Positions 11,501-51,944 of a stretch of 64,000 nt of DNA are shown one piece after another (position 1 is the first letter of the stretch; every line of letters starts with the position of its first letter). The notes beneath the pieces are model-generated. The model saw nothing but the letters and a program-made list of their open reading frames with translations, searched no databases and was not told where the DNA came from. The stretch comes from Candidatus Zixiibacteriota bacterium. Its GTDB lineage: Bacteria; Zixibacteria; MSB-5A5; UBA10806. The stretch lies in contig CP070742.1 of the NCBI GenBank assembly GCA_020348065.1, positions 2,696,094 through 2,760,093 of the forward strand. The letters are read 5' to 3'. The position numbers and the translations under genes are program-made.

Positions 11501-14500
11501 CCTGTCTGATTCCGCTGATTCCCGTTTTATGAGCGTCGTTCAGGGAATATGCTCGTTTAATGATAATCTCCGGTGATTTTCTTAGAATTATATCCCTTAA
11601 TCTCTCATAAATATCGTTTGAGGAGATTATTGTTACGATATTAAAACCGGCTAAATCTTCGATAGATTCGAAGTTGTTAAAATCATCCGGATCATTTAGA
11701 AGCGACAGGTCCAGCGAATCATTTTTGCAAATCCAGAGCGCGATTTCATTTGAAATTTTAAAGGTAACAATATATATCTCGTCGTCGGGGATATCTTCGA
11801 TAAGGGATATTACGGACGGCGGATCAAAGACAAGAGAGGAATACGCCACCGGATCCAGTTCTTTTGTCTCCTGGCGTAATTCGAGTATCCTGCCCCTGAT
11901 TCTCAATATATTTTCGGTTACTTCCCGGAGCCTGATTTTTCCGGTAACTCCGATCGCCTCCAGTTTTTTCTTCTCCATATAAAGGTCGATCAGGTTTTTT
12001 TGATATTGTCGCAGCAAATTAAAGTTGGCCCTGAAGCGGTCCGATTTATATTTGACCGCGTTTATTTGATTCAATCGTGCCGCAAGGAGAAGGTTTTTCA
12101 TGCTTTCCAGGTAAAATAACCCGGAATATATATCGCCTTCATTTATATAATATTCGATAATTCTGGTATATACGGTTTCCAGTAAAGGGGTATCGATCAC
12201 CTGGCTTTTGCCTATCGGCATATTTTCATATAATCCAACCGCGTCCCTCAAAGACTCGATAAAACTATCATCGTCGTCCCTGCTAATTATCGCGTCGAGG
12301 GCCAGCAGCCTGGCGTACAAACTTGCGGATGTCGAAAAAACGGCCGATTTTTTCGCGCTTTTTATCGACGATCTTAAACCTTCAAAATCACCCAGAGAAT
12401 AAGACGCCACCGCGATATTCAATGAAAGTCCGGTTTCGATATCGGGATATTCCCCCGGAACGAGCTCCGCCAGGGCGTCCCTGAAATAATAGACCGCCCT
12501 TGAAAATCTTTCATGTATCCTGTCGGCGCCGCTATTCAAACCCGCCAGAAAACCCCGGACATCAGAATATTCATCATTCAGAACATTACCCGATTCAATC
12601 AATCCACGTATATACTGTGCAAGGCCGGCAATATTTTTCAGATTCGCCCGGGCGTTGGGATAGGACGGCAATATGTAATCATATAAATCCAGGGCTTTAT
12701 CCTCGATCTCATCCATCTGTTTTATAACCGCGGGATAATCCGATCCGGGATAACAATAAAATACGGCCTCCGCCCAATTTAGGAGTTCGATGTAGGCGCC
12801 GTGATAGTCTTCCAGATTCATGCATAGTTTATACGCTTTTTTATAGGACACCATAGATGAATCGAAATAACCGATTTCGAGATATTTGGCGCCGACGTTA
12901 TCCCATAAATCTACACTGTTTGCCTCTTCGTCCGAGTTTTCGAGAATTTCGATCTGCCTGTTTTTTAAGCTTATCCCGGAGATTATATCCCGGCCTTCAT
13001 GCGCCATCTCCAGAAGGAAAGCCTCGTCGGCCGCGCGGGTGAATCCTTTGGGATAAAGCGATCCCCCGAATCTCATGGGGAGAAGCTCGATGAGAGGTAT
13101 ATTTATGCCAAACGGCCACAAAATAAACTTAACCCTGTTATCATATTTTATTTCTTTATATTTGATTTTTTCGGACGATGTTAGCGCCTCGCCTGCGTAT
13201 ACCGATGCGGATTTATCATCTCCCGTCATCTTCAGACAAAACGCCTGTGCCTTTAATAAATCCATTAAAGTCTTACCGTCATTTCGGGCATTATAATATC
13301 TTTTGGCTGCTTCGTATAATTCGGCGGCCTCGATATATTTTCCCTGGAGCTGATTCAATAATCCCAATTTCAAAGCCGCAAAGGCCCTGGTCTCCGCATC
13401 GCCGGAATCGCTCGATTTTTCATAAAGCCTTTCGAAATATTCCTTTGCCGTCTCAATACTGTCGATATAAAGCGCGCTTTCGCCGTATTTCTTTATGAAC
13501 TTCAGATTATTTTCGAGCGCGATATTAATTTCTTTCGCCGCTTTATAATATTTAAACGCCTCGTTATATTGTGTCAATCCGAAATACGCCTCCCCCAGAT
13601 TCAGATAGAATCCATACGCCAGATCTTCATTTTTATTTATCAGGGAGATCCCCTTAAAGGAAGATTCCACCGCTTCTTCGTATAATCCCTGAGGCTCTTT
13701 TGAATTCTCCTCCAGCAAACAGTCGGCATATGAGATCGACAAATATGATAAAGGAAACGAGGGATATTTCTCAATAATCCTCGAGAGTTGCGCCCTGGCT
13801 TTTTTCAGGTCGGATATCTTATTATTATTCTCGAAATTCACTATATTTGTCAGGGCCTTCAGGTAGGCTATACCCGCTCCGGATAATGTATGAAAGACTA
13901 TATCATTTAAGCTTTTGTTGTTTTTAATACTATATCCGGCCGCCGCCAATCCCCAGATCGCATTGTAATTATTCGCGTTGCAGGTTAAGGCTTCTACAAA
14001 TAATTTCCGCGCTTCATCCGAGCTGTTTTTAAGCTTTTCGTATCCCGAAAAAGCGTAATATCCCGCCGCTTTAATTTTGAAGGATTCAACGGTTTTATAA
14101 TTATCTATAAAATCCAGATAGGCCGATGCGGAGTCGATCATGACCCCAGCCTTATCGTAAATATTACCGTCCATATAAAGGTCGAAAAGTTCATTGAACA
14201 CCGCGAATCTCAATCTCGGATTATCGAAATACCTTTCCGAAATCTCCTCCAATCTCCATTGGGCCAGCGATTTTCGCCCCTGCAGAGACAGTATCTTCGC
14301 CTGCTCCAGCGATGCCGATCCCGATAGAAGCGGATACGATTCATAATTGCTCCTTAATTCTTCGAGTTCATCCAGTACATTGCCGGAAGCCGCATCGATA
14401 AGAAGTGCAATCAGGTCATTTACCAGAATTTCGTTTATTTCGGTATTCAGCTCGTATTTTTCAATCAGTTCTATATATATAGGTATTAAATCGTTTATAT

Positions 14501-15923
14501 CTCCGGCATATGTACTTGCAAGATATTTCAGATCCCATCGCTCAAGTACCGCCAATATGTCTGCATCGTTATTAAATTCGCTTATGCCGTCATCGATCAG
14601 TCTTTTCCCGTCATCATACATCTTTTCGTTGAAATACAGGCTTATACAAAATTTATATGTTTCTTTTTTTAGGTTATCGGGCAGTCTTTCATCGCCCAAC
14701 AGGGTTTTACAGATATCGATCGCCTTATACTTCTCCCTCATATATTCCTTTTTACTGGATATCCCGTATCTTATTTTGGCTTCCGTCAACCGAATTTCAT
14801 ATTCGAATAATGAATCAGCGTAATAGCCCGGGTCCGCCAGAATGTCCAGCGCCAGGCCGCGATAGTTCAGTCCAGCATAAATTAATGCCGACCTTGTGAT
14901 AAGTTCTCTACAATTCTCCGGATAATAATTATAGGCCTCATAACATGCAATCCCCCCGATCAAGGAATCATTAAAAGTCAATGATTGCGTAACCAACGAG
15001 TCGCATAACGCATATTGGCTTTCGCCATCCGGTTCTTTTTCCGTCAATCCGCCCGGAGGGATTAGATAGATATTTCCATCGTCGCCCTGCGCCGCTATTA
15101 AATTATTCTTCGAGGCGTCGGGATTCGAAAATTCCAATCCCGGCAGCAATCTCCTTAATCTCATATCAGACAAGTTTAGAATCATTAAATCCGAATCGTC
15201 GCTTATAGTTACTCTTCCATCCTCGCTTGTATCTCTCGATTTTTTTTCAAATAGAATACGATCTCCTCCACCCAGAATAACCGGGTTAAGATGCAATCCG
15301 CCCCCTGTATCGAAAAATATGATCGATGAATCAATCAGACTGTAAACGGCAAGTTTGTTGGCGCCCCTCTCGTCTACCGGCGATACGAATATCAGGCTGT
15401 CGCCCGAGGGGAAAAATGACGGATCCAGTCCCCGGGGTCCCTTTCTTTTTTCATCTCTTTTAACATCATATATGTATATGAATACACTGTCATTCAGATC
15501 GCTGTAAACATAGGCGATCCGGCTTCCATCTCTCGCAGCTGCGGGAGAATCGTAATAACCTCCGCCGCCGATGATCGTTTCCTGTTTTTTTCCGTTTACA
15601 TCTGTTATAAAGATCTCCCCAAGGCTATTGTCACGTCTCGATACAAATAAAATCTTCGAATTTCCCCAAAATTCCGGGGAATAATCCGACGCCGAATGAA
15701 ATGTTATCTGTCGTTTCCGCCGGCTTTCGAGATCAAGCAGCCATATATTTTCATCTCCGTCTGATTCCGCGCAGTATGCAATATACCTGCCGTCGGGAGA
15801 TAATGAAGGATCATATTCCCTGTTTAACGACGATGATATATTTTGCGGAAGATTAAAATCGCGCGCGCTCAAATCTCCGGCTTGATTAATTAATAGAATG
15901 AAGATTAAAAGAAATCTATACAT
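8502..15923 (-). CDS. Giant secreted protein (2473 aa) with an N-terminal TolB-like PD40 beta-propeller, a very long TPR-like helical repeat region, and a C-terminal CHAT-like (caspase-fold) domain
   Basis: It has a signal peptide (MYRFLLIFILLINQAGDLSA). The N-terminus carries PD40 repeats (DGRYIAY..SDGDENIW; DGSRIAYVYSD). The middle is more than 1500 aa of TPR-like repeats. The C-terminus has ILVIPDGILFAFPFETL ... FIYPLWDLSNEIKAAFYWRFLRNLADGK, matching the CHAT core patterns (LVIVPDG.L..LPF..L ... SLW.V.D.....LM..FY..L). The catalytic His/Cys dyad is not confidently identifiable. Confidence 0.65.
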   Translation of the reverse strand: MYRFLLIFILLINQAGDLSARDFNLPQNISSSLNREYDPSLSPDGRYIAYCAESDGDENIWLLDLESRRKRQITFHSASDYSPEFWGNSKILFVSRRDNSLGEIFITDVNGKKQETIIGGGGYYDSPAAARDGSRIAYVYSDLNDSVFIYIYDVKRDEKRKGPRGLDPSFFPSGDSLIFVSPVDERGANKLAVYSLIDSSIIFFDTGGGLHLNPVILGGGDRILFEKKSRDTSEDGRVTISDDSDLMILNLSDMRLRRLLPGLEFSNPDASKNNLIAAQGDDGNIYLIPPGGLTEKEPDGESQYALCDSLVTQSLTFNDSLIGGIACYEAYNYYPENCRELITRSALIYAGLNYRGLALDILADPGYYADSLFEYEIRLTEAKIRYGISSKKEYMREKYKAIDICKTLLGDERLPDNLKKETYKFCISLYFNEKMYDDGKRLIDDGISEFNNDADILAVLERWDLKYLASTYAGDINDLIPIYIELIEKYELNTEINEILVNDLIALLIDAASGNVLDELEELRSNYESYPLLSGSASLEQAKILSLQGRKSLAQWRLEEISERYFDNPRLRFAVFNELFDLYMDGNIYDKAGVMIDSASAYLDFIDNYKTVESFKIKAAGYYAFSGYEKLKNSSDEARKLFVEALTCNANNYNAIWGLAAAGYSIKNNKSLNDIVFHTLSGAGIAYLKALTNIVNFENNNKISDLKKARAQLSRIIEKYPSFPLSYLSISYADCLLEENSKEPQGLYEEAVESSFKGISLINKNEDLAYGFYLNLGEAYFGLTQYNEAFKYYKAAKEINIALENNLKFIKKYGESALYIDSIETAKEYFERLYEKSSDSGDAETRAFAALKLGLLNQLQGKYIEAAELYEAAKRYYNARNDGKTLMDLLKAQAFCLKMTGDDKSASVYAGEALTSSEKIKYKEIKYDNRVKFILWPFGINIPLIELLPMRFGGSLYPKGFTRAADEAFLLEMAHEGRDIISGISLKNRQIEILENSDEEANSVDLWDNVGAKYLEIGYFDSSMVSYKKAYKLCMNLEDYHGAYIELLNWAEAVFYCYPGSDYPAVIKQMDEIEDKALDLYDYILPSYPNARANLKNIAGLAQYIRGLIESGNVLNDEYSDVRGFLAGLNSGADRIHERFSRAVYYFRDALAELVPGEYPDIETGLSLNIAVASYSLGDFEGLRSSIKSAKKSAVFSTSASLYARLLALDAIISRDDDDSFIESLRDAVGLYENMPIGKSQVIDTPLLETVYTRIIEYYINEGDIYSGLFYLESMKNLLLAARLNQINAVKYKSDRFRANFNLLRQYQKNLIDLYMEKKKLEAIGVTGKIRLREVTENILRIRGRILELRQETKELDPVAYSSLVFDPPSVISLIEDIPDDEIYIVTFKISNEIALWICKNDSLDLSLLNDPDDFNNFESIEDLAGFNIVTIISSNDIYERLRDIILRKSPEIIIKRAYSLNDAHKTGISGIRQVTGIAILRFDGFVLTDGMADEIGADIINYDSTSYEIDLSKYGWIILDGKLVVDDKNFIFSSWERFGGDGDNIRSDKFAIRNLPKIKNNAFGAILIDPANEPDESENAILIKLIENMGVNAVLRIENILDPAALESDIKKFFDGLEAGTPIRSYYGAFIQGSIVNNDNNSYIISYFGDDGWSKNEEDLHVKDLFNEYVLIGNQFYILKNWAMAEKYYSLALNIVSNRKFDSKMKAHAAGNLMKTYEKTGEYNYRIQRDHGKLIEIFEKTGDSLQLAKIYYDMAEIKYDINELENSIDYATMLIEITEKTKDFLMRAKGFAIRGKALKEKGELDKAQADLSKSLELFPANNIEDKLWSGLYLAEIFNLMEMYGKSKMRLDSLEVLIDKDRENNIYREYLIQLSRYHIGTFRNESARRNLESLLKENKNNAEAAVLLGKIYLMRGDFESALESAEKGLSLLKGRGKSLIVMETYELLGDIYRAMGRKEKSLIDYRLAEDAIGNYEYRKSSDLLRYKRELVSENGSNDMDSLYNAIISDSKTEYVKNLCRYQLGYHAVIKDNKKKAGNYFMEISKSIDKNTLGYLKWRAFYNLALIAEKEIKLNHLESAERLIREYPVEPDYVKAAHGLWEDRSDLYNMAAEIRISEERASPAVNYLETGYSQKISGRHFSVGNFDSTENIILNHIFMNEKERDYIEYTDNEFKSMENNLAYGVLWGVRPDSVEELQGNLNDDEAVLRFYSADNGFMAAYVDKDSIFIHKYGFKEDELSKSLMMMDDLLADQQKADSIMEKWYSEIISPVERFLDEKDRILVIPDGILFAFPFETLKMPDGDYLSEMFILIRHIYLPREFPKDPLEGTSVFLEFEAGYDPDVRLIQYIAEPLLKPAGPSGNRVRFYSGDFSFFDGSHEGERNIACTVKPFSEDNYLNLALQAVMSARDGNVGFIYPLWDLSNEIKAAFYWRFLRNLADGKGYWNSYRISRSYIFGHYDGLPNLWGANVFMSLN

Positions 15924-31373: not shown

Positions 31374-31838
31374 TTATACCTCCCCGTCCCCGCCGCAGAT
31401 CCGGCAATCGACCAGTTTTTTCGAATTTGTATGCTCTCCTGCCGCCAGAAGACACTCCGGGCATGATGTCAACCTCACCTTGGCCCCGAACATCTGGCCG
31501 TGTGTCTTATCGTAAGGCGAACCGGCGGCGCAGACCCCGGTGGCGTCACAATGTTCGCAGGGAATTCCCTGTTTTTTCGGTTTTTCGGGTTCTTTCTCAA
31601 TAACCGGTTTTGGTTGCGGTTCAGGTTTGGGTTCAATTTTTTCTTTTTTCTTTACCGCCTTTTTTATGGCTTTCTTTTTAGCGACTTTCTTCTTGGCCGC
31701 CTTTTTTACCGCTGATTTTTTTACGGTCTTTTTGGCGGGAGCTTTTTTGCTTACTTTCTTCTTGGCTGCCGTTTTTTTCTTCGCCGCCTTTTTACCGGAT
31801 ACTTTTTTCTTTGCCGGCATGGTCTCTCCTATTCTCAA
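31374..31838 (-). CDS. Histone-H1-like lysine-rich protein with a Pro-rich linker and a C-terminal Cys-rich zinc-ribbon-like domain
   Basis: 154 aa. The N-terminal roughly 60 aa are (KKAAKKKV)n. Then comes PKPEPQPKP, then 8 Cys arranged as CxxC...C...CxxC...CxxCGGDG (one DnaJ-like CxxCxGxG motif). Confidence 0.5.
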   Translation of the reverse strand: MRIGETMPAKKKVSGKKAAKKKTAAKKKVSKKAPAKKTVKKSAVKKAAKKKVAKKKAIKKAVKKKEKIEPKPEPQPKPVIEKEPEKPKKQGIPCEHCDATGVCAAGSPYDKTHGQMFGAKVRLTSCPECLLAAGEHTNSKKLVDCRICGGDGEV

Positions 31839-32049
31839 TCATGCTTCTATTTTTCCAAAAAATAACGCTCACCCGGATTCCGCATCCGCCAAAACATCAA
31901 TCATCGAAAGAAAATCTACTTTATAATTGTAGCAGTATTCGGCCGTATCGGCAATAAATTTTTGGTTTCAAGGCCGGATATTAGATGCCGATACAATATA
32001 TAATAAGCGGCCGAAATCTTTGGGGCCGTTTTGATCAGGAGGGCATAAG

Positions 32050-34369: not shown

Positions 34370-34951
34370 TCAATTAACATTATCTATCTTAATCCTGTTT
34401 ATGTTCGAATCTCCGATAACGCCGTTAACGGTTAATAATAGCTTCTTTTCCGATGATCCGAAATTATCATCGGTATGATGGAGTTTCTGAAAAAAACCGT
34501 CCCTTCGAAGGTCATCAAATCCTATACCCCCTACGATAGACCGCGAAGAAAGTTTTACCGCCAATTTATCCGGAATTTTTATTCGTATATCGCCCACCAA
34601 CGACGACGCGCTTATTTTATTTTCGCCGGTTTTAAAATCGGCAGCGGTAAGATCGATTTTAATATCGCCGATCAGGACGAAGTAATGGTGATCCGTTACC
34701 TGTTTGCCGCTTAAAGTAATATCCTGATCGCCGAAAAAACTATTCTCGGAGGCAAACCCACCCGATCCAACACTACCTCTAATTCTTCTCCGGTTTCTAA
34801 TAATATAAATCCCCAGGGCTATCAACGCGATGGGCCAGAGCTTCCAGATGAAATCCCAGAAGTCGAAACCGCCAAAGACATTGTCTATCAAGACAAGCAC
34901 GCCGATAGCTATAATCAGCGTGCCGATAATTCTGTTGGTCTTAGATTTCAT
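34370..34951 (-). CDS. LiaF-like membrane protein (N-terminal TM pair plus C-terminal beta-rich toastrack-like domain)
   Basis: 193 aa with two N-terminal TM helices. The C-terminus has repetitive GDI.I../GGI beta-strand patterns, as in the LiaF/DUF2154 C-terminal domains. Confidence 0.4.
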   Translation of the reverse strand: MKSKTNRIIGTLIIAIGVLVLIDNVFGGFDFWDFIWKLWPIALIALGIYIIRNRRRIRGSVGSGGFASENSFFGDQDITLSGKQVTDHHYFVLIGDIKIDLTAADFKTGENKISASSLVGDIRIKIPDKLAVKLSSRSIVGGIGFDDLRRDGFFQKLHHTDDNFGSSEKKLLLTVNGVIGDSNINRIKIDNVN

Positions 34952-35180: not shown

Positions 35181-35678
35181 CTAATCCAGCTTAAAATCAC
35201 CGTGCTTTTTAATATGCGAGACCAGGCCGCCGTCATTTAAAATTTTGATCATAGTAGGCGGCAGAGGCTTAAACTCCAGTTCCTTGCCGTTGGTCAGATC
35301 TTTAATCCTTCCGGTTTCGAGATCGATCTCGAGTTCGTCCCCGGCGTCAATCTGATCGGTATCGCAAATCAAAACCGGTAAACCGACATTTATCGAATTG
35401 CGGAAGAATATCCGGGCGAAAGATTTCGCCAGCACCGCAGATACTCCGGCCAGATGAATAATCGTCGGCGCGTGTTCTCTCGAAGACCCCAGACCGAAAT
35501 TGTTGCCGCCCACCACGAAATCGCCGGCCGACATTTTGGACGCGAATTCCGGATCGGCGTCCTCCAGAACGTGTTTGGCGAGCTCCGGCAGATCCGAGCG
35601 AAGATGAAAATACCGTCCGGGAGCGATATGATCCGTCGAAATATCGTCACCGAATTTCCATGCTTTTCCTTTCAGCAT
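35181..35678 (-). CDS. leuD: Aconitase-family hydratase small subunit, LeuD type 2 (3-isopropylmalate/homoaconitate dehydratase-like)
   Basis: 165 aa. It has the swivel-domain motifs GDDISTDHI.P and VGGNNFGLGSSREHA. Confidence 0.8.
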   Translation of the reverse strand: MLKGKAWKFGDDISTDHIAPGRYFHLRSDLPELAKHVLEDADPEFASKMSAGDFVVGGNNFGLGSSREHAPTIIHLAGVSAVLAKSFARIFFRNSINVGLPVLICDTDQIDAGDELEIDLETGRIKDLTNGKELEFKPLPPTMIKILNDGGLVSHIKKHGDFKLD

Positions 35679-35689
35679 TTTATCTCCTC

Positions 35690-37396
35690 CTACCTTCTGC
35701 CGGTTCTTTTTGTGGTTTTCTTAGCCGCTTTTCTCGCGACTTTCTTCACCGCCTTCTTCTTAACGACCTTTTTGGCGGCCTTCTTCTTTACCGCTTTCTT
35801 CTTTGCCGTGTTCTTTTTCGCGGCATTCTTTTTGGTCGCCTTTTTCGTAGAGTTTTTAGGCGGTTTTGAGCTCAATGCGTCTTTAATAGCCCTGGTCGCA
35901 TCGGCAGCGAGTTTGGTTAAGGTTTTTTCAAAATCCTCCGCCGCTTTTCGTACTTTGGGGCCATATTGTTCGGTCGCTTTTCTTGCGACCTTTTCGACTG
36001 TATCCGAAGCCTCTTTCGCCCTCGGACCCAAAACCGTAGCCGTATCCGAAGCCACTCTCTCGATCGTTTTCTGCGCGGATTGCGCCACCGCTTTCAAAGC
36101 CATGGTATCAACAATTTGCGGTTTACCTATGGTTTTTAGTTCTTTTGCGTACTTACGAGGATCGGCTATCACACCCTCAATCGCTGTCGCCGCAATAACC
36201 GCCGGCGATCCGAGGTATATCTCCGCGTTAGGATTTCCCATCCTGCCATGAAAATTCCTGTTCATGGTGGTGAGGCTAATCTCACCATCGGCTGGAATGC
36301 CGCCGTGAATCCCAACACAGGGTCCGCAGCCGGGCGGAACCATTACGGCGCCGAACTCTACCAGCGTTTTATAGTACCCCAGGTCCATGACCTCCTTCAT
36401 CACCTCAACGGAGCCCGGGATGGCTATAAACCGCATTCCCGGAGCGATTTTTTTCCCTTTAACGATTTTCGCCACGACTTCCCAGTCTTCTGTCCTGGAA
36501 TTCGTACAGGTTCCCAAAAATACCTGGTCGATTTTTATTCCGGCGGCTTCGTCAATTGTATAAGTATTATCGACGGTATGAGGGTAACTGACCGTGGGAG
36601 CCAATGTCGAAACGTCGATTTCAATAACGCGTTCGTATTCCGCGTCGCTATCCGCTTTAAGCGGTATCCATTTGTCTCCCCTGCCCCGCGATTCCAGATA
36701 TTTTTTCGTGGTCTCGTCCGACGCTATCAATCCCGCTTTTGCGCCGGCCTCCACCGCCATGTTGGACAAAGTAAACCGCGAAGACATATCCATCTCTTCG
36801 ATCGTCGGTCCGCAGAATTCGAGAGATTTATAAGTTGCCCCATCCGCTCCGATTGTGCCGATCAGATGAAGAATCAGGTCCTTGGGAAATACGCCGAGAG
36901 GGAATGTCCCGGTGACATATACTTTAAAGGATTCCGGAACCCTGAACCAGCTTTTTCCATAAGCCGCTCCGATGGCGACATCCGTGGAACCCATTCCGGT
37001 CGAAAAGCAGCCCAGCGCGCCCCCGGTGCAGGTGTGGCTGTCGGCTCCTATTAATATTTGACCCGGCACAACATAATCCTCATTGATTACCACATGACAA
37101 ATCCCTTTGCCGACTTCCGAAAGCTGAGCCCCGGTTTTTCTGCAAAAATCCCTGATGAATTTATGGTCATTGGAGAGTTCTTTACGGGATGAGGGCGCCG
37201 AGTGATCCAGGAAAAATACGACCCTGTCGGGATTCGCCAATTTGTCCACCCCCAGTTTCTCAAGCTGCCTGATGGCCAGAGGACCGGTTCCGTCCTGAAA
37301 GAGGCAAAGATCTACGTGTGCGATTGCTATCTCTCCGGCAGAAACGTCATGTCCCGCGTGAGAACCAAGGATTTTTTCAGCAAGAGTCTTGCCCAT
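35690..37396 (-). CDS. leuC: Aconitase-family hydratase large subunit (LeuC type) with a C-terminal amphipathic-helical extension of about 150 aa that ends in a lysine-rich histone-H1-like tail
   Basis: 568 aa. The core has the Fe-S ligand context GADSHTCTGGALG ... GTCTNSR ... GCGPCVG. After residue 420 or so comes a helical low-complexity region. The final 55 aa are KKATKKNAAKKNTAKKKAVKKKAAKK... Confidence 0.8.
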   Translation of the reverse strand: MGKTLAEKILGSHAGHDVSAGEIAIAHVDLCLFQDGTGPLAIRQLEKLGVDKLANPDRVVFFLDHSAPSSRKELSNDHKFIRDFCRKTGAQLSEVGKGICHVVINEDYVVPGQILIGADSHTCTGGALGCFSTGMGSTDVAIGAAYGKSWFRVPESFKVYVTGTFPLGVFPKDLILHLIGTIGADGATYKSLEFCGPTIEEMDMSSRFTLSNMAVEAGAKAGLIASDETTKKYLESRGRGDKWIPLKADSDAEYERVIEIDVSTLAPTVSYPHTVDNTYTIDEAAGIKIDQVFLGTCTNSRTEDWEVVAKIVKGKKIAPGMRFIAIPGSVEVMKEVMDLGYYKTLVEFGAVMVPPGCGPCVGIHGGIPADGEISLTTMNRNFHGRMGNPNAEIYLGSPAVIAATAIEGVIADPRKYAKELKTIGKPQIVDTMALKAVAQSAQKTIERVASDTATVLGPRAKEASDTVEKVARKATEQYGPKVRKAAEDFEKTLTKLAADATRAIKDALSSKPPKNSTKKATKKNAAKKNTAKKKAVKKKAAKKVVKKKAVKKVARKAAKKTTKRTGRR

Positions 37397-37471: not shown

Positions 37472-38401
37472 CTAATAACCGATAATCTTCAGCGTTTCTT
37501 TGTATGTTTCAGCTGAATGCTGTAACGATTTTAATTCCTCGTCATTTAACTTTATTTCGAGAATTTTCTCGACACCGTCCTTGCCGATAACAATGGGAAC
37601 CCCGATATAAAGGTCCTTCACGCCGTACTGACCGGTCAGGTAAACGGAGCAGGGCATAACTCTTTTACGGTCGCGAATAACCGAATCGACCATCTCCGTG
37701 GTGGCTGCCGCGGGAGCATAATAAGCGGAACCGGTTTTCAACAGCTTAACTATCTCGCCGCCTCCCACCCGGGTTCTATCGGAGATGGCCTGGATTTTAT
37801 CCTCCGGCAACAACTCGGTTATCGGAATGCCGGATACCGTAGTATACCGCGGCAACGGAACCATTGTATCACCATGCCCGCCGAGTACCATGGCCTGGAC
37901 ATCAGCGACGGAAACGCCGAGCTCCCAGGCCACAAAAGTCCTGAAGCGAATTGAATCGAGAACTCCTGCCTGTCCAAAAACCCTGTGGTTCTCGAAACCG
38001 GTGATTTTCCAGCAGTGGTAGGTCATTATGTCAAGCGGATTCGCCACCATGATTACCATCGCTTTGGGGGCATACTTTTTAATATCTTTAGAAACGGCGC
38101 CTATAATATCGGCATTGGATGTTATCAAATCTTCACGCGACATACCCGGTTTACGAGGCAAACCGGCGGTATGAACCACTATATCGGAGCCTTTTATATC
38201 AGCAAAATCGTTAGAACCGGTGATCACGGTTTCATAGCCATGAACGGGACCGGCCTGGCAAAGATCGAGCCCTTTGCCCTTTGGCATATCCTCAACAATA
38301 TCAATAATGGTAATATCGCAGATATTCTTTTCCGCGAGATACATCGCGGTACACTCGCCCACATGCCCGGCACCAATAACCGTTACTTTCGGTCTCATCA
38401 A
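37472..38401 (-). CDS. mdh: Malate dehydrogenase (LDH-like, NAD-dependent)
   Basis: 309 aa. It has the Rossmann motif VTVIGAGHVG, an Arg in the substrate-loop position (GLPRKPGMSR), and the catalytic His block (GGHGDTMVP). Confidence 0.9.
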   Translation of the reverse strand: MMRPKVTVIGAGHVGECTAMYLAEKNICDITIIDIVEDMPKGKGLDLCQAGPVHGYETVITGSNDFADIKGSDIVVHTAGLPRKPGMSREDLITSNADIIGAVSKDIKKYAPKAMVIMVANPLDIMTYHCWKITGFENHRVFGQAGVLDSIRFRTFVAWELGVSVADVQAMVLGGHGDTMVPLPRYTTVSGIPITELLPEDKIQAISDRTRVGGGEIVKLLKTGSAYYAPAAATTEMVDSVIRDRKRVMPCSVYLTGQYGVKDLYIGVPIVIGKDGVEKILEIKLNDEELKSLQHSAETYKETLKIIGY

Positions 38402-39645
38402 ATTCCTCCTTTTACGTCGATCCTTTCAGGAACCAAAAAACACGCATCTCTCAAAACAGCAATATTAGCTGTGCCGCCGAAATAATCAAGAGCATCTCTT
38501 AACGCGTCCTGCGGCGAACATTTCGGCACAAAATACACTTTTCTAATTACGTTGTCATCCAATTTCGTAACATACCAGATTTTTATTTTTTCAAGCCGCC
38601 TGGCGGTCTTGATAAGTTTGTGAATTCCAAAGCGGTTATCGATCAATGCCGCATCCGATAAGGCTGTCTCAGGAGTCGGGTAATTCTCCGCCAGCTCAAC
38701 GAAATAAGGCGACCCGATACCCTCATCACAGGCCCCAACCACAACTATTATGCCGCCGTCGGATACCGCTTCAGCCCCGTGCTCCTGCGCTTTTTGCAGC
38801 TGATATAGATTAATATCAAGAGGATATTCGCCAATAGCGAACACGATATCGAAAGTTTTGGTTATCGGTATAGAATATATATCCCGCGCCAGCTTCGAGG
38901 CCTTGAGAAAGGTATCCTTAAGATTTCCGCAAAACAGGTCTATAATTTCGCCTTTTCGCGATAATACGAGCTGGATTGAAAATATCGGCGCTTTAACAAC
39001 CATGTCGGCAGCTTCCACGAGGTCAAGATGCACCGGGTTATTCTCGAGATTAAGGCTCTTCGCCTTCTCCGATTTGGCCAGGCTGTGATTGGCGACTACG
39101 GTCTCCCGTCCCGCCAGCCCGGGAACAATCGATTTTCTGCCTCCTGTAAACCCGGCGAAAAAATGGGGTTCGACGGAGTTAATGCATATAACTGCTTCGG
39201 CTTCCAGGAATTTCCGGTTTATCTCTACCGTCGTACCAGATGATGTTAACCCGATTCTCTCCAGATGGTTTTTATCATCACAATTATGACTTGCGACTTT
39301 CGATTTCAATTTATCATACAGGTCGCCAAGTATCTGTTTCAGGTTTTCTTCCGTAAGAACATCATGAGTGCCGGTTGCCGCGAGAATCCGGACGTTATCA
39401 ACCGGCAGAAAATCAAGCAGGATTTTAAGGATTTTCTCTGTGGGGACTCTTCTGGTTATATCGTTTATAATTATTAAGACTTTTTTGCCGCCGAATTCCT
39501 TACGGCGGTCCAGATACTCTTTTTCGATTTTAGCATATACCTCGCTATCCGGAATAGGCCTATGATCATTGCCCGACAATATCGCGGTATCGTCGGGAAA
39601 TTCCATCTTGATGATTTCACCGCCGTATGGGAAATCTATCGTCAT
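38398..39645 (-). CDS. larA: LarA-family nickel-pincer-nucleotide-dependent 2-hydroxyacid racemase/epimerase (lactate racemase homolog)
   Basis: 415 aa. LarA catalytic/cofactor residues are conserved in context: ATGTHD (His), FFAGFTGGRK (the NPN-tethering Lys), and ANHS (second His about 16 aa later). The stop overlaps the mdh start (ATGA). Confidence 0.65.
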   Translation of the reverse strand: MTIDFPYGGEIIKMEFPDDTAILSGNDHRPIPDSEVYAKIEKEYLDRRKEFGGKKVLIIINDITRRVPTEKILKILLDFLPVDNVRILAATGTHDVLTEENLKQILGDLYDKLKSKVASHNCDDKNHLERIGLTSSGTTVEINRKFLEAEAVICINSVEPHFFAGFTGGRKSIVPGLAGRETVVANHSLAKSEKAKSLNLENNPVHLDLVEAADMVVKAPIFSIQLVLSRKGEIIDLFCGNLKDTFLKASKLARDIYSIPITKTFDIVFAIGEYPLDINLYQLQKAQEHGAEAVSDGGIIVVVGACDEGIGSPYFVELAENYPTPETALSDAALIDNRFGIHKLIKTARRLEKIKIWYVTKLDDNVIRKVYFVPKCSPQDALRDALDYFGGTANIAVLRDACFLVPERIDVKGGI

Positions 39646-39654
39646 TTTGGCAGA

Positions 39655-40059
39655 TCAGGAAAAGAAAAAAGCTATTTCGGTTTTGGCGGATTCCTCGCCG
39701 TCGGAGGCGTGGACGGAGTTTTTGGTGAGGCTCAGTGCAAAATCGTGGCGAATGGTGCCCGGAGCCGCTTTCGCGGGATCCGTGGACCCGATTAGAGATC
39801 TGATTTTCGATACCGTATCACCGTCGGATTCCAGAACCATGGCGACGATGGGGCCGGAGGACATGAATTGACACAGTTCTTCAAGAAAAGGCCGCCCCTC
39901 ATGGACTGCATAAAATTTCCTTGCCTCGTCATAAGTTAATCTGACCATTTTCATGGCAAGGATTTTAAATCGCGCCGATTCCAACCGCGAAATAATCCGG
40001 CCAATAAGATCTCGTTCAATCGCATCCGGCTTAATTATCAAAAGCGATTTTTTTCTCAC
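39655..40059 (-). CDS. ndk: Nucleoside diphosphate kinase
   Basis: 134 aa. It has the NDK active-site region ...NSVHASD... and an overall family match. Confidence 0.9.
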   Translation of the reverse strand: MRKKSLLIIKPDAIERDLIGRIISRLESARFKILAMKMVRLTYDEARKFYAVHEGRPFLEELCQFMSSGPIVAMVLESDGDTVSKIRSLIGSTDPAKAAPGTIRHDFALSLTKNSVHASDGEESAKTEIAFFFS

Positions 40060-42986: not shown

Positions 42987-44063
42987 TTACTTCCTTTTCA
43001 AGATTATTTTCTGTTTCTTTTTAACTGCGACCTTCTTTTTTGCCGTTTTCTTAGTCGCTTTCTTTTTTGTGGTCTTTTTTGTCTTCTTTACGACCTTCTT
43101 CGCCGTTTTTTTTGCCTTCTTTATAACCTTTTTCACCGTCTTCTTTTTGGCGGCCTTCTTTTTCGCTTTTTTATGAGCCGCTTTTTCCCTGACTGCTTCA
43201 AGTTTCTCTTTTAAAAGTATCGGCAACTGGGACGGAATATCCGCCACCGGAACACCGACGCTGTTCAAAGCTGCAATTTTATCGCCCGCCAAACCGGAGG
43301 AGCCCGAAATAATGGCACCGGCATGCCCCATTCTCTTTCCGGGAGGTGCGGTACGTCCGGCAATGAACCCGACGACCGGCTTTTTCATCTTCTTGTCAAT
43401 GAACTCCGCGGCCATCTCCTCGTCGGAGCCGCCAATTTCCCCAATCATAACAACTGCCTCGGTTCCCGGATCGTTCTCGAAAGCTTCAAGACAATCGATA
43501 AAATTAGTGCCGATTATCTGGTCTCCGCCTATACCGATACATGTCGATTGACCGAAACCGGCCAGGGTTAGATTGTATACGACCTCGTAGGTCAAGGTTC
43601 CAGAACGCGAAACGACGCCTATTTTCCCCTTTTTATGGATCTGGGCCGGCATTATGCCGACCTTGGTCAATCCCGGAGAAATAATTCCCGGACAATTCGG
43701 TCCGATAAGACGGATGCCTCTATGTTTTAAGAAGTGATATATCTTCATCATATCGTTTGCCGGGATGCCTTCAGTTATGCATACGATCAGTTTTATGCCT
43801 GCGTCCGCGGCTTCATAAATGGCGTCGACGGCAAAAGCGGGAGGAACGTAAATGATGGACGTATTGGCCCTTGTCGCTTTGACAGCCTCCTTCATGGAAT
43901 CAAAAACAGGTATGTCATCCAGTTTGGTTCCGCCTTTACCCGGCGTTACGCCGCCCACTATTTTGGTACCGTATTTAACCATCTGACGAGTATGGAACGC
44001 CCCGTCTCGTCCGGTTATGCCCTGAACTATCACTCTGGTTTTATTATCTGCAAAAATAGCCAT
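42987..44063 (-). CDS. sucD: Succinyl-CoA synthetase alpha subunit with a lysine-rich histone-H1-like C-terminal tail of about 70 aa
   Basis: 358 aa. The core has the CoA-binding site and the phosphohistidine loop (MGHAGAI). After residue 290 or so the sequence is [26 protein letters not shown]... Confidence 0.9.
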
Positions 44064-44093: not shown

Positions 44094-45224
44094 TTAGGCC
44101 GCTTTTTCCAACGCCATTTTAACGGCTTCTTCCATGGATGTAGTCGCCTGCAGTCCCACGCTTTTTAAAATCTGCCTGGCTTCATCCTCGTTGGTACCTG
44201 TTAACCTGACCACAATAGGGACATTGGGGTGAAGATGCTCGACAGCCTGAACAATACCGTTGGCCACATCATCACATCTGGTTATACCTCCGAAAATATT
44301 GAATAGAATAATTTTCACTTTCGGTTCCCCGATAATAATTTTCATGGCCGTTATGACTTTTTCGGGAGACGATGATCCGCCGATATCAAGGAAATTGGCC
44401 GGTTCGCCGCCGAAATGCTTGACCAGATCCATGGTAGCCATGGCCAGACCGGCCCCGTTGACACAGCAACCGACATTGCCGTCGAGCTTGACAAAGGAAA
44501 GATCCGCCTTTTTTGCTTCGATTTCGTCCGGATCTTCGGCGTCGAGATCGCGGAATTCCTCAAGATCAGGATGACGATACAAGCCGTTATCGTCAAGGTT
44601 AATCTTGGCATCAAGAGCGATCAGCTTGCCTTCCCTGTCGACTATCAGGGGATTTATTTCGGCGAGAGACGCGTCGCTGTGAATAAAAACATCATATAAT
44701 TTTAGAATAATAGAGGCACACTGGCGCGCGAGTTTGAAATCATCATATACGAACATCCCCAGCCGCGTGGCCTCGAATCCACGAAGACCCATGATGGGAT
44801 TGACCTCGAATTTCATGATCTTTTCGGGAGTTTCCCTGGCCACCTGCTCGATATCGATTCCTCCCGCTGGAGAAACCATCACCACTGCCTTTTTCGATAC
44901 GCGGTCCAGAATAATCCCGACATACGCTTCATTGACTATATCCAGGGCTTCCGAAACAAGAATCTTTTTTACCGGTAATCCCTTTATCTCCATTTTAAGT
45001 ATTTCCTCGGCGTTGAAATAAGCGTCATCCGGTTCGGCGCAGTATTTTATGCCACCGGCCTTGCCCCTGCCACCGACGTGCACCTGCGCTTTGACCATGA
45101 CTGCTTTCTCATACTTTACGGCCAGTTGCCGCGCTTCCTCCGCAGAATTCGTCACATCTCCTTTGGGAATCGGAATGCCGAACCTGGCGAAGATTTCCTT
45201 GGCCTGATATTCGTGTATTTTCAT
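44094..45224 (-). CDS. sucC: Succinyl-CoA synthetase beta subunit (ATP-grasp)
   Basis: 376 aa, beginning MKIHEYQAKEIFARFGIPIPKG, the canonical SucC start. Confidence 0.9.
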   Translation of the reverse strand: MKIHEYQAKEIFARFGIPIPKGDVTNSAEEARQLAVKYEKAVMVKAQVHVGGRGKAGGIKYCAEPDDAYFNAEEILKMEIKGLPVKKILVSEALDIVNEAYVGIILDRVSKKAVVMVSPAGGIDIEQVARETPEKIMKFEVNPIMGLRGFEATRLGMFVYDDFKLARQCASIILKLYDVFIHSDASLAEINPLIVDREGKLIALDAKINLDDNGLYRHPDLEEFRDLDAEDPDEIEAKKADLSFVKLDGNVGCCVNGAGLAMATMDLVKHFGGEPANFLDIGGSSSPEKVITAMKIIIGEPKVKIILFNIFGGITRCDDVANGIVQAVEHLHPNVPIVVRLTGTNEDEARQILKSVGLQATTSMEEAVKMALEKAA

Positions 45225-47824: not shown

Positions 47825-49183
47825 TTACTTTTTGCCCGTCTTTTTTCTTTTTTTCTTCGGCTTTCCGAACAGGTCCTTCAATATGTCTGCGACGCCGGGA
47901 TAACCGATCTCCTGCAGATCGTATTTAACCCTGACGGCGGGCTTGTTTATTTTTATTATTTTGGCCAGATCTATCGGCGTACCGATAATGACCGAATCGC
48001 ATTTTGTGGCGTTAATTGTTTTTTCCAGGTCTTTGATCTGTTTCGCTCCATATCCCATAGCGGGAAGCAACGTGCCGATCCGGGGGTATTTCTGATAGGT
48101 GGCGGTGATTGAGGCCACGGTATAGGGACGCGGATCGACCAGCTCGGCCGCTCCGTATTTTTGCGCCGCTACGACCCCGGCGCCGTAGGTCATTTCGCCG
48201 TGAGTCAGGGTGGGGCCGTCTTCCACGACCAGCACTTTCTTGTTCTTTATCAAATCGGGTTTATCCACAGCGATGGGCGAGGCGGCCTCGATAATGATGG
48301 CCCCCGGGTTCAGTATCCTGACCGATTCTCTCACCGTCTGAATACCTTCAATTGGCGCGGTGGCGACCTTGTTGATAACGATTACATCCGCCAACAACAC
48401 GTTGGTCTCGCCGGGATAATAGGTCCGTTCATGGCCCGGTCTGTGAGGATCGACTACCGTTATATAAAGATCGGGCTGATAGAATGACATATCGTTATTG
48501 CCGCCATCCCAGACTACAACATCGGATTCGGCCGCGGCTTTTTCCAGTATAATTCCGTAATCAACTCCAGCGTACACCACCTGCCCCCTCATGATATGAG
48601 GCTCATACTCCTCGCGTTCTTCGATTGTGCATTTATGTTTATCGAGATCGCTCGGCTTTTCGAATCGCTGCCATATCTGTTTGGTGAGATCTCCATAGGG
48701 CATGGGGTGGCGAACCACTGCCGCTTTAAGTCCCATCTCTTTCAAAACTCCGCATACTTTACGGGTCGTTTGAGATTTTCCGGAACCGGTTCTCACGGCG
48801 CAGATAGATATTACCGGCTTGCCGCATTTCAACATGGTGGGAATTCCCCCGACCAGAGTAAAATTAGCGCCGCAGGCGTTTACAACGGCGGCCTTAGACA
48901 TCACATAGTTGTACGAAACGTCGGAATACGAAAAAACGACCTCATCTATCTTATGTTTGGCAATCAGCATGGCCAGCTTATTTTCAGCGTGTATCGGAAT
49001 ACCGTCAGGGTAAAGTTTACCGGCAAGCCTGGCGGGATATTTCCGTCCCTCGATATCGGGAATCTGCGTGGCGGTAAAAGCGACAACCTCATAATCCTTA
49101 TTATTTCTGTAAAGACAGTTAAAATTATGAAAGTCCCTTCCTGCCGCGCCCATTATCAGGATTTTTTTTCGTTTCATTAACAC
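47825..49183 (-). CDS. P-loop NTPase domain protein, cyclic-2,3-diphosphoglycerate-synthetase-like / DUF1611-like. The function is uncertain. It ends in a short Lys-rich tail.
   Basis: 452 aa. It has a Rossmann-like N-terminus (ILIMGAAGRDFHNFN), Walker A (AVRTGSGKSQTT), and the C-terminus GKPKKKRKKTGKK. The family assignment is from memory only. Confidence 0.35.
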   Translation of the reverse strand: MLMKRKKILIMGAAGRDFHNFNCLYRNNKDYEVVAFTATQIPDIEGRKYPARLAGKLYPDGIPIHAENKLAMLIAKHKIDEVVFSYSDVSYNYVMSKAAVVNACGANFTLVGGIPTMLKCGKPVISICAVRTGSGKSQTTRKVCGVLKEMGLKAAVVRHPMPYGDLTKQIWQRFEKPSDLDKHKCTIEEREEYEPHIMRGQVVYAGVDYGIILEKAAAESDVVVWDGGNNDMSFYQPDLYITVVDPHRPGHERTYYPGETNVLLADVIVINKVATAPIEGIQTVRESVRILNPGAIIIEAASPIAVDKPDLIKNKKVLVVEDGPTLTHGEMTYGAGVVAAQKYGAAELVDPRPYTVASITATYQKYPRIGTLLPAMGYGAKQIKDLEKTINATKCDSVIIGTPIDLAKIIKINKPAVRVKYDLQEIGYPGVADILKDLFGKPKKKRKKTGKK

Positions 49184-51482: not shown

Positions 51483-51944
51483 TTATTTATTTACATCGTC
51501 TCTTGAAATCGTGCTTGTGTCCTCAGGCTTTTCCCTGCCGAATAATTTTCTAAAAAACCGTTTCCTTTTGGCCCAACGCGCTTTTTTTTCAGCCCTGTAT
51601 TTTTTCTTCAGCTCTTTCTCTTTCTGGAATTGAACAGCATCGAGCTCCTCGATTTTCTGCAGAAGCCTCTCCACGTTATCCCGTTTTTCCATCATGCGCC
51701 GAAACGTATTGTATCTGGAAATATCCTTGAAAACAGCCTGCACAAACGGCTCCAGAAAAACCATGGCCTGGGAACCTAAATAATTTAACGGCTTGACGGT
51801 TTCCAGGGTAAGGATGGCGGGGACAGTAAATCCTTTCCTGACAATAAAATCGGCAAGCTTGAACAGCACCTCCTGTTCGTTCTTGCTTAACGTTTCCTCC
51901 TCGGGCGGAAGTTCGTAGCTTCCGAACGGCGATTTATGAGCCAT
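51483..51944 (-). CDS. Hypothetical protein with a basic C-terminus
   Basis: 153 aa. It overlaps the upstream ORF by 11 nt. I recognise no domain. Confidence 0.35.
   Translation of the reverse strand: MAHKSPFGSYELPPEEETLSKNEQEVLFKLADFIVRKGFTVPAILTLETVKPLNYLGSQAMVFLEPFVQAVFKDISRYNTFRRMMEKRDNVERLLQKIEELDAVQFQKEKELKKKYRAEKKARWAKRKRFFRKLFGREKPEDTSTISRDDVNK

Follow-up and report, generated by a model that had tools for sequence, protein, structure and literature searches.

Lysine/alanine-rich C-terminal tails on central-metabolism enzymes of Zixibacteria, candidate tethers to cellular polyanions

The window analysed here is a stretch of 64,000 nucleotides (nt) from the genome of a Candidatus Zixiibacteriota bacterium (contig CP070742.1, positions 2,696,094 to 2,760,093). 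Between 31 and 51 kb it contains a central-metabolism supercluster, defined from open reading frames (ORFs) with Pfam and NCBIfam matches and lying almost entirely on the minus strand. The cluster runs in the order aldehyde dehydrogenase, GTPase-like P-loop protein, carbamate kinase, CCA-adding enzyme, sucC, sucD, korD/A/B/G (2-oxoglutarate:ferredoxin oxidoreductase), ndk, larA-like and mdh, and continues with a LeuC-type large subunit, a LeuD-type small subunit, a LiaF-like membrane protein and icd. Three of its proteins, the LeuC-type large subunit, the succinyl-CoA synthetase alpha subunit (SucD) and the GTPase-like protein, end in lysine/alanine-rich tails. These tails had been noticed by a reader of the letters alone (the original prediction), and all three are confirmed in the sequence at the sites given there. 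Judged from their conservation across more than 100 relatives, the tails are genuine, selected, lineage-specific C-terminal extensions. What is new here is the fusion, throughout a phylum, of a known type of polycationic low-complexity domain to central-metabolism enzymes, together with an orphan stalk module. Full-text literature searches found no paper describing lysine-rich tails on SucD, on aconitase/LeuC-type enzymes or in Zixibacteria, in line with the earlier reader, who knew of no such feature described for SucD or LeuC in model organisms. Automated annotation calls the proteins plain LeuC and SucD and thereby misses 15-27% of each.

The LeuC-type gene (35690..37396, minus strand) encodes a protein of 568 amino acids (aa) that is identified as a LeuC/HacA/aconitase-family hydro-lyase large subunit from its ORF and from matches to NCBIfam PRK00402 and TIGR01343 and to Pfam Aconitase. 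Its catalytic domain (aa 1-414; 36155..37396, minus strand; net charge -12) is delimited by the hidden Markov model (HMM) coverage of aa 3-414, over which PRK00402 scores 551 bits (cutoff 385) and TIGR01343 543 bits (cutoff 386). The Fe-S ligand and catalytic motifs are all present (DH, DSHTC, GTCTNSR, GCGPC and NRNF) and, with the full-length HMM matches, place the protein in the aconitase/3-isopropylmalate dehydratase/homoaconitase large-subunit family. It falls short of the equivalog cutoffs of both LeuC (466 vs 611 bits) and HacA (423 vs 550 bits). From its icd-mdh-kor-suc context it is probably the aconitase of this tricarboxylic acid (TCA) cluster.

Beyond the core the LeuC-type protein continues for 154 aa. 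A helical repeat spacer of 100 aa (aa 415-514; 35855..36154, minus strand; net charge +8), recognised from an AlphaFold2 model and a homolog alignment, is followed by a polycationic tail of 54 aa (aa 515-568; 35693..35854, minus strand; net charge +27), recognised from its K/A/V/T composition and low predicted local distance difference test (pLDDT) values. This layout matches the helical spacer of about 100 aa and the tail of about 55 aa first described, and the segment 35690-35870, the coordinates then given for the observation, corresponds to the stop codon and the 59 codons before it. The last 60 residues contain 25 lysines (binomial P = 4e-15; this and the following binomial values use a lysine background of 0.062, the frequency in 40 other ORFs of the window). 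With pLDDT of 32-36 throughout, the tail is predicted to be disordered; the model derives from a shallow alignment (mean pLDDT 61) and is used for secondary structure and disorder only. The DNA of the tail carries a weak 15-nt tandem repeat (35768-35833). Long F/L/A-rich ORFs at 35454-36251 and 31540-31926 on the plus strand mirror the lysine-rich strand, where AAG and AAA become CTT and TTT; these antisense ORFs are spurious and do not represent genes.

The spacer is predicted to form two long helices (aa 431-455 and 460-509, AlphaFold2, pLDDT 44-59). It is built from a unit of ~37 aa, in which a 22-aa part (GPKAKEASxKVExxAKKAIxxY) precedes a 15-aa part (GPKAxKAAxDTAAVx). Approximately 1.5-2 copies are present in the window protein and ~4-5 in four relatives (P0007, P0015, P0019 and P0080). 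The expanded unit reads DTAAVIGPKAKEASxKVERMAKKAxAEYGPKARKAAK, and three of these proteins reach 678 aa (P0007), 671 aa (P0015) and 642 aa (P0019). The spacer thus measures ~100 aa here and up to ~210 aa among relatives, and because the copy number differs between lineages, the length of the stalk varies. Its helices are amphipathic, with a hydrophobic moment (muH) of 0.5-0.6 over aa 433-510, a low mean hydrophobicity (-0.4 to 0) and an apolar face consisting mostly of alanine.

When 1.84 billion representative proteins were searched with a spacer profile, 21 matched at E <= 1e-3. Every strong match is to a LeuC-type protein or to a fragment of one. The weak matches are unrelated repeat proteins, including some with Pro/Gly-punctuated amphipathic helices (P0372, P0373, P0378). 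Neither Pfam (E <= 10) nor a profile search of PDB sequences returned a significant match. The best matches below threshold were to Apolipoprotein A1/A4/E (E = 0.011) and KMP-11 (E = 0.017), and KMP-11 structures also appeared in the PDB search. An assignment as apolipoprotein (PF01442) was rejected at 15.8 bits against a gathering cutoff of 90, one as KMP-11 because the match is far under threshold, and one as phasin because no phasin family in Pfam matches even at E <= 10. On the basis of these profile comparisons, the spacer appears to be an orphan module, essentially confined to the LeuC-type enzyme among the 1.84 billion representatives. One short-tailed relative (L010, 2844-3834) has two additional ORFs between its LeuC-type and LeuD-type genes, of 131 and 202 aa and without Pfam matches; considered as candidates for a free-standing ancestor of the spacer, both turned out to be unrelated.

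The other long tail is carried by succinate-CoA ligase alpha subunit, encoded by sucD (42987..44063, minus strand; 358 aa). Membership of this family is established by a match of 454 bits to NCBIfam PRK05678 (cutoff 336), covering aa 1-289, and by the adjacent sucC. The extension (aa 290-358; 42990..43196, minus strand; net charge +36) lies beyond the coverage of PRK05678 and comprises 69 aa, close to the 70 originally estimated. Lysine accounts for 35 of the 69 residues (binomial P = 4e-24). In the AlphaFold2 model the last helix of the catalytic domain continues to ~aa 307, and so includes the first ~18 residues of the extension, while disorder is predicted for aa 308-358 (pLDDT ~30). The tail DNA has tandem repeats of 12, 15 and 33 nt at 43060-43164. 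Identical copies of SucD (P0121) and of the GTPase-like protein (P0241) are present at NCBI in a metagenome-assembled genome of Candidatus Zixiibacteriota.

The third tail is of a different scale. The GTPase-like P-loop protein (47825..49183, minus strand; 452 aa) ends in the short basic C-terminus GKPKKKRKKTGKK (47828..47866, minus strand, from the ORF), in which 8 of 13 residues are lysine (binomial P = 2e-7). The basic end that had been reported is therefore present, and at least 6 K/R fall within the last 16 residues in 111 of 120 homologs, but at 13 aa it is far smaller than the tails of the LeuC-type protein and SucD. The accompanying label 'cPGS-like' found no support in Pfam or NCBIfam models: the protein has no NCBIfam match, and its sole Pfam match, cobW, is below threshold (20.5 vs 20.7). 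Homologs at NCBI are named 'GTPase' or, in some cases, 'cyclic 2,3-diphosphoglycerate synthase', as free-text annotation.

A fourth lysine-rich domain, absent from the original prediction, was found by a six-frame scan of the window. It belongs to a Cys-rich protein of 154 aa (31374..31838, minus strand) encoded just past icd. Its N-terminal ~60 aa are K/A-rich and H1-like (~nt 31641-31820) and are joined by a PEPKPEPQPKP linker to a C-terminal domain reminiscent of a DnaJ-type zinc ribbon, with CxxC occurring four times (CEHCDATG ... CPEC ... CRICGGDG). The protein scores 29.9 bits with Pfam HC2 (cutoff 40), and its matches to NCBIfam H1-like models are likewise below threshold. Syntenic orthologs are found in three other loci (L001 11164-11628, L002 7355-7867 and L004 15165-15659). 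From these sequence features, the protein may be a nucleoid protein of the lineage.

In ~275 kb of Zixibacteria loci, a sample that mostly covers one conserved gene cluster, lysine-rich domains are limited to these four families (LeuC-type, SucD, GTPase-like and the 154-aa protein). In this sample the tails thus do not look like a proteome-wide habit. Among the cluster proteins, lysine-rich domains are absent from Icd, Mdh, KorABGD, SucC, LeuD, Ndk and the LarA-like protein. The LeuD-type small subunit (35181..35678, minus strand; 165 aa; net charge -6), which starts 11 nt past the stop codon of the large subunit, and the beta subunit encoded by sucC immediately upstream of sucD (44094..45224, minus strand, from the ORF; 376 aa; net charge -13) are both tailless. 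The suggestion that the tails might assemble the TCA module into a metabolon is therefore not evident in the cluster, where only two enzymes carry long tails while Icd, Mdh, KorABGD, SucC and LeuD carry none.

Both long tails are widespread among relatives. The best ~70 LeuC-type homologs with spacer and tail are 59-94% identical to the window protein and 537-678 aa long, derive from JGI, ENA, NCBI and Logan assemblies, and are Zixibacteria wherever they are named. SucD tails are present in all 120 of the best homologs (66-100% identical), measuring 33-115 aa in the 116 for which core and tail could be separated. The order of the cluster, with tails on the matching genes, is also kept in other Zixibacteria contigs (L001-L004, L012, L014 and L015). 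A further contig of 1.92 Mb (L013; ERZ25039554, contig_21850) was left out as tail evidence except for SucD. In this contig sucC, korA, mdh, the LeuC-type gene and icd are each broken into short ORFs, which looks like the result of long-read frameshift errors.

Conservation within these proteins is uneven. Median identity to the window protein is 78% in the LeuC-type catalytic domain, 62% in the spacer and 40% in the tail, compared with 32% for shuffled tails as a control. The corresponding values for SucD are 81% in the catalytic domain, 39% in the tail and 36% for shuffled tails. Across homologs, LeuC-type tails have a K+R fraction of 0.44, a D+E fraction of 0.00 and a net charge of +13 to +35, and SucD tails have a K+R fraction of 0.51, a D+E fraction of 0.00 and a net charge of +15 to +65. 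Since composition and charge are kept while identity is near that of shuffled sequence, selection acts on charge and composition and not on sequence. A comparison of orthologs had been proposed, with position but not sequence expected to be conserved, and the tail identity of ~40% vs 32-36% for shuffled tails bears this out.

Codon usage in the tails is also distinctive. Lysine codons in the LeuC-type tail occur at 9 AAA to 14 AAG, compared with 35 to 5 elsewhere in the gene (Fisher p = 1e-4), and AAG is enriched in the three long lysine-rich domains pooled relative to 12 neighbouring cluster genes (p = 0.008). Use of AAG holds poly-A runs in the tails to <= 8 nt. As slippage takes place on poly-A tracts, the AAG bias fits selection for faithful translation of the tails. 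The tandem repeats of 12-33 nt in the tail DNA fit growth and shrinkage by local duplication.

LeuC-type proteins form a graded series. The first class has no extension (416-418 aa) and includes some Zixibacteria-named sequences; the second has 15-25 basic residues (432-438 aa), as in RBG-1 with TVKKGSSAKSSKKSSKQKKKK. In the third, a lysine-rich tail of 40-110 aa is attached directly to the core (451-523 aa), and in the fourth the core is followed by spacer and then tail (537-678 aa). The tailless and short-tailed forms share the leuC-leuD-icd context, and are thus orthologs and not paralogs from the leucine pathway. A LeuC-type relative from the Archaea (Archaeoglobi, L006) has no tail.

One ortholog has lost its catalytic residues. 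P0365 (573 aa; L007 2969-4690) occupies the syntenic slot X in the order ndk - larA-like - mdh - X - liaF-like. It is a full-length ORF that retains the spacer and the basic tail, and all three Fe-S cysteines are lost. The motifs DH, ICH, DSHTC, GTCTNSR, GCGPCVG and NRNFHGRMGN of the active enzyme read ER, IGN, DSNSG, GAAADSR, GIGSDDG and GYTNSQIIPAA, respectively. At this locus leuD is not in its usual position, and P0365 is followed directly by the liaF-like gene. The degenerate motifs recur in P0364, which shares 59% identity with P0365; the catalytically dead clade is represented by these two sequences. A single metagenome scan for further members returned only the nearest active relatives of P0365 (L015 and L016) and one distant match. 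Taken from two sequences, this pattern suggests that the fold, stalk and tail together may have a function without catalysis. It is possible that P0365 is a pseudoenzyme with a structural role.

Based on sequence, structure prediction and analogy, the tails could be disordered polycationic tethers to cellular polyanions, a reading to which a probability of roughly 0.5 is given. Nucleoid DNA would be the most likely target, followed by RNA/ribosomes or polyphosphate. The tails would bind these polyanions by non-specific electrostatics, and part of the enzyme pool would be tethered to or concentrated on the polyanion scaffold rather than freely diffusing. In the LeuC-type protein the spacer between enzyme and tail would serve as a stalk or provide a second, amphipathic surface for binding. 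The properties of the tails are consistent with such a role. The polycationic segments are ~30-115 residues long, contain ~45-50% K+R, are essentially acid-free and occur on one subunit per enzyme. They shift the net charge from -12 for the LeuC-type core to +23 for the whole protein, and from +3 to +39 in the case of SucD. The alpha-beta pairs are still positive, at ~+26 for SucCD and ~+17 for LeuCD. In the cytoplasm of E. coli, strongly cationic variants of GFP bind ribosomes and their diffusion is much slowed (PMC5726854).

Several observations weigh against this interpretation. With the HC2/H1-like HMMs (PF07382; NF038052, NF038053) the LeuC-type tail scores only 11.9 bits (E = 0.24, cutoff 40), the SucD tail has no HC2 match, and the full LeuC-type and SucD proteins have none at E <= 0.01. 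The likeness to H1-type domains is therefore in composition only. The resemblance to H1, Hc1/Hc2 and AlgP that had been pointed out thus stands as far as composition is concerned (K+R 0.44-0.51, D+E ~0) and does not extend to the Hc2 family HMM. The tails are also less proline-rich than the KPAA repeats of AlgP and PhaF or the C-terminal domain of H1. Lysine-rich tails are lacking from the window's nucleic-acid-handling proteins (L9, FtsK, the CCA-adding enzyme and the sigma-54 activator), and so the tails are no general nucleic-acid-binding tag in this lineage. Some Zixibacteria LeuC-type orthologs are tailless or have 15-25 basic residues only, which indicates that the long tail is dispensable for enzyme function. 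In addition, the same charge physics would favour anionic membranes or acidic partners (SucC -13, LeuD -6). Finally, Zixibacteria are an uncultured phylum.

Comparable tails are known from several systems. The tail of PhaF, a phasin of Pseudomonas with an H1-like C-terminal domain, binds DNA non-specifically and tethers polyhydroxyalkanoate (PHA) granules to the nucleoid (PMC9239181), and its disordered region also binds RNA (PMC12818456). PhaF and the LeuC-type protein have the same two-part layout, in which a long disordered tail rich in Lys and Ala comes after an amphipathic alpha-helical segment (in the LeuC-type protein, muH 0.5-0.6 and disorder over aa 510-568). Unlike PhaF, the LeuC-type protein has a 414-aa Fe-S hydro-lyase upstream of this segment and no phasin HMM match, and there are no pha genes in the window. 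The tails themselves follow KKxx/KKKxx patterns with Val/Thr and little Pro, where PhaF has KPAA repeats. The tail of AlgP from Pseudomonas aeruginosa binds DNA as well, and AlgP localises to polyphosphate granules, which require the tail for their spacing (PMC9239181). Its K/A-rich disordered C-terminal domain carries a net charge of +55, compared with +27 to +36 here. However, AlgP is a dedicated structural/regulatory protein with KPAA repeats, whereas here the tails are carried by metabolic enzymes. The window showed no polyphosphate genes.

Chlamydial Hc1/Hc2 and the H1 C-terminal domain are similar to the tails in amino-acid composition, and in both cases composition is conserved and sequence is not. 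The length of Hc2 varies through short DNA repeats (PMC2848022), which the weak repeats of 12-33 nt in the tail DNA resemble. On the other hand, HMM scores are far below threshold, with only the 154-aa protein nearing the Hc2 model, and the tails studied here sit on enzymes.

A further parallel is provided by aconitases themselves. Yeast Aco1 has a role in the maintenance of mitochondrial DNA for which catalysis is not needed, and IRP2, an RNA-binding paralog, has no catalytic activity; these non-catalytic roles would parallel the dead but tail-bearing P0365. Bifunctional enzymes, including Aco1, occur in yeast mitochondrial nucleoids (PMC8477199), and the aconitase of Caulobacter associates with the RNA degradosome (PMC3045602). 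In Aco1, Caulobacter aconitase and IRP1/IRP2, an aconitase-superfamily enzyme is coupled to DNA or RNA assemblies, as proposed for the LeuC-type protein. These enzymes use their folded body or a docking microdomain of the partner, however, and not an appended tail, and they are of the monomeric AcnA type in contrast to the two-subunit LeuCD type found here. The yeast SucD homolog Lsc1 is not counted among these precedents, as the literature consulted does not describe it as a mitochondrial nucleoid protein.

Lysine-rich tails are also present on mycobacterial HupB and topoisomerase I. In mycobacterial Ku, a Lys-rich tail of PAKKA repeats modulates DNA binding (PMC3553676). The Ku tail is likewise a lineage-specific, low-complexity extension of an otherwise conserved protein, although its carrier already handles DNA, while the carriers here are enzymes of central metabolism.

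The physics that would draw the tails to nucleic acids might instead place them on lipid surfaces, with the polybasic tails on anionic phospholipids and the LeuC-type spacer lying on a membrane, lipid droplet or storage granule. This explanation deserves some weight but appears unlikely. The spacer helices are amphipathic (muH 0.5-0.6), and both the non-significant family matches (Apolipoprotein, KMP-11) and the remote profile matches (P0372, P0373 and P0378, with their Pro/Gly-punctuated amphipathic repeats) point towards helices of this kind, those of the two families being lipid- or membrane-associated. The gene for the LiaF-like membrane protein keeps its place between leuD and icd throughout the phylum. 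The layout also recalls that of PhaF, MLDS and HBHA, which are coats of granules or lipid droplets (PMC9239181; PMC5504291; PMC6176652). MLDS bridges lipid droplets and genomic DNA (PMC5504291) and HBHA plays a part in lipid inclusions (PMC6176652). Together with TadA, these proteins from Actinobacteria have in common with the LeuC-type protein an amphipathic helical region and a basic Lys-rich C-terminus; they are, however, small dedicated coat proteins and not enzymes, and no sequence relationship was detected. Moreover, the family matches of the spacer are far below threshold (15.8 bits vs 90 for Apolipoprotein), and its helices are of low hydrophobicity (-0.4 to 0) with an apolar face made mainly of Ala. 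SucD has no amphipathic spacer, and its tail contains no hydrophobic or aromatic anchors. No gene for PHA synthase, wax-ester synthase or phasin lies within the window.

It is rather unlikely that the tails act within their own complexes, as entropic bristles, solubility tags or electrostatic clamps on the acidic SucC, LeuD and LeuC-type core that would stabilise or regulate the heteromeric enzyme and bind nothing outside it. Exactly one subunit per enzyme is tailed and the partner or core is acidic (SucC -13, LeuD -6, LeuC-type core -12), and the plastic length of the tails (33-115 aa) is as expected if bulk charge alone matters. The charge is nevertheless heavily over-compensated, by ~+26 per SucCD pair and ~+17 per LeuCD pair. 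The dead ortholog keeps its spacer and tail at a locus that lacks leuD in the usual place, and a conserved helical stalk of 100-210 aa with variable copy number is ill suited to a solubility tag.

A role as an acyl-CoA-responsive lysine array, in which the tails would serve as sinks or switches for non-enzymatic succinylation/acetylation close to where succinyl-CoA is produced and their charge and binding would follow TCA flux, is very unlikely. The longest and most lysine-dense tail does belong to the subunit that handles succinyl-CoA. Nevertheless, the idea is purely speculative, succinylation is reported to prefer ordered and alpha-helical regions over coils, and the LeuC-type and GTPase-like proteins handle no acyl-CoA.

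An origin in frameshifts, missed stop codons or mis-assembly, one of the outcomes that the original prediction had named as fatal to it, can be set aside almost with certainty: the spurious antisense ORF at 35454-36251 illustrates how low-complexity DNA can fool ORF callers, but no support for an artefact was found, more than 100 independent assemblies share the in-frame extensions with conserved junctions, the spacer retains 62% identity and codon usage in the tails is non-random. The other such outcome, absence of the tails from close relatives, is contradicted by their presence on ~70 LeuC-type proteins and all 120 of the best SucD homologs.

If the tails do tether these enzymes to polyanions, a more far-reaching proposal, itself quite unlikely, is that succinyl-CoA synthetase and the aconitase-type enzyme have a second role in the architecture of the nucleoid or of a polyanion-scaffolded condensate. 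The tails would then be charge-switchable, for example through succinylation/acetylation, the architecture would be coupled to TCA flux, and the structural role would have outlasted catalysis in one lineage. The dual-role aconitase-type protein would, in that event, be a bacterial analogue of yeast Aco1 or IRP2 that works by means of an appended H1-like tail.

The spatial organisation of central metabolism in bacteria is a largely open question, and it is one that the tailed enzymes address. As natural fusions they are directly expressible, and both their placement (on the nucleoid, ribosomes, polyphosphate granules or membrane) and its effect on flux or stress survival could be followed. The orphan stalk with its variable copy number offers an additional handle, and the tail-bearing dead ortholog may separate structural from enzymatic roles.

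Some other features of the window were also noted. The LiaF-like gene (34370-34951, minus strand; LiaF-TM and LiaF-like_C) lies between the LeuD-type gene and icd, amid genes for soluble enzymes, and this position is conserved in L001-L004, L012 and L015. The LarA-like gene (38398-40059, minus strand), of the nickel-pincer lactate-racemase family, sits with ndk between mdh and korG, an arrangement conserved in the Zixibacteria loci L003, L007, L012, L014 and L015. The remainder of the window is ordinary chromosome and encodes FtsK, LptD, type-IX-secretion substrates, ribosomal protein L9, peptidyl-tRNA hydrolase, a sigma-54 activator, a histidine kinase and a giant protein of 2473 aa. The giant protein (8502-15923, minus strand) contains PD40 and many tetratricopeptide repeats (TPR), bears no relation to the tails, and is encoded downstream of a DUF1318 protein and a DUF748-like protein of 1029 aa. 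Close to its C-terminus, a protein of 153 aa (51483-51944, minus strand) that matches no Pfam family contains a basic segment with aromatic residues (KKKYRAEKKARWAKRKRFFRKLFGREK). This segment is unlike the K/A tails in composition and may form an amphipathic membrane-binding helix.

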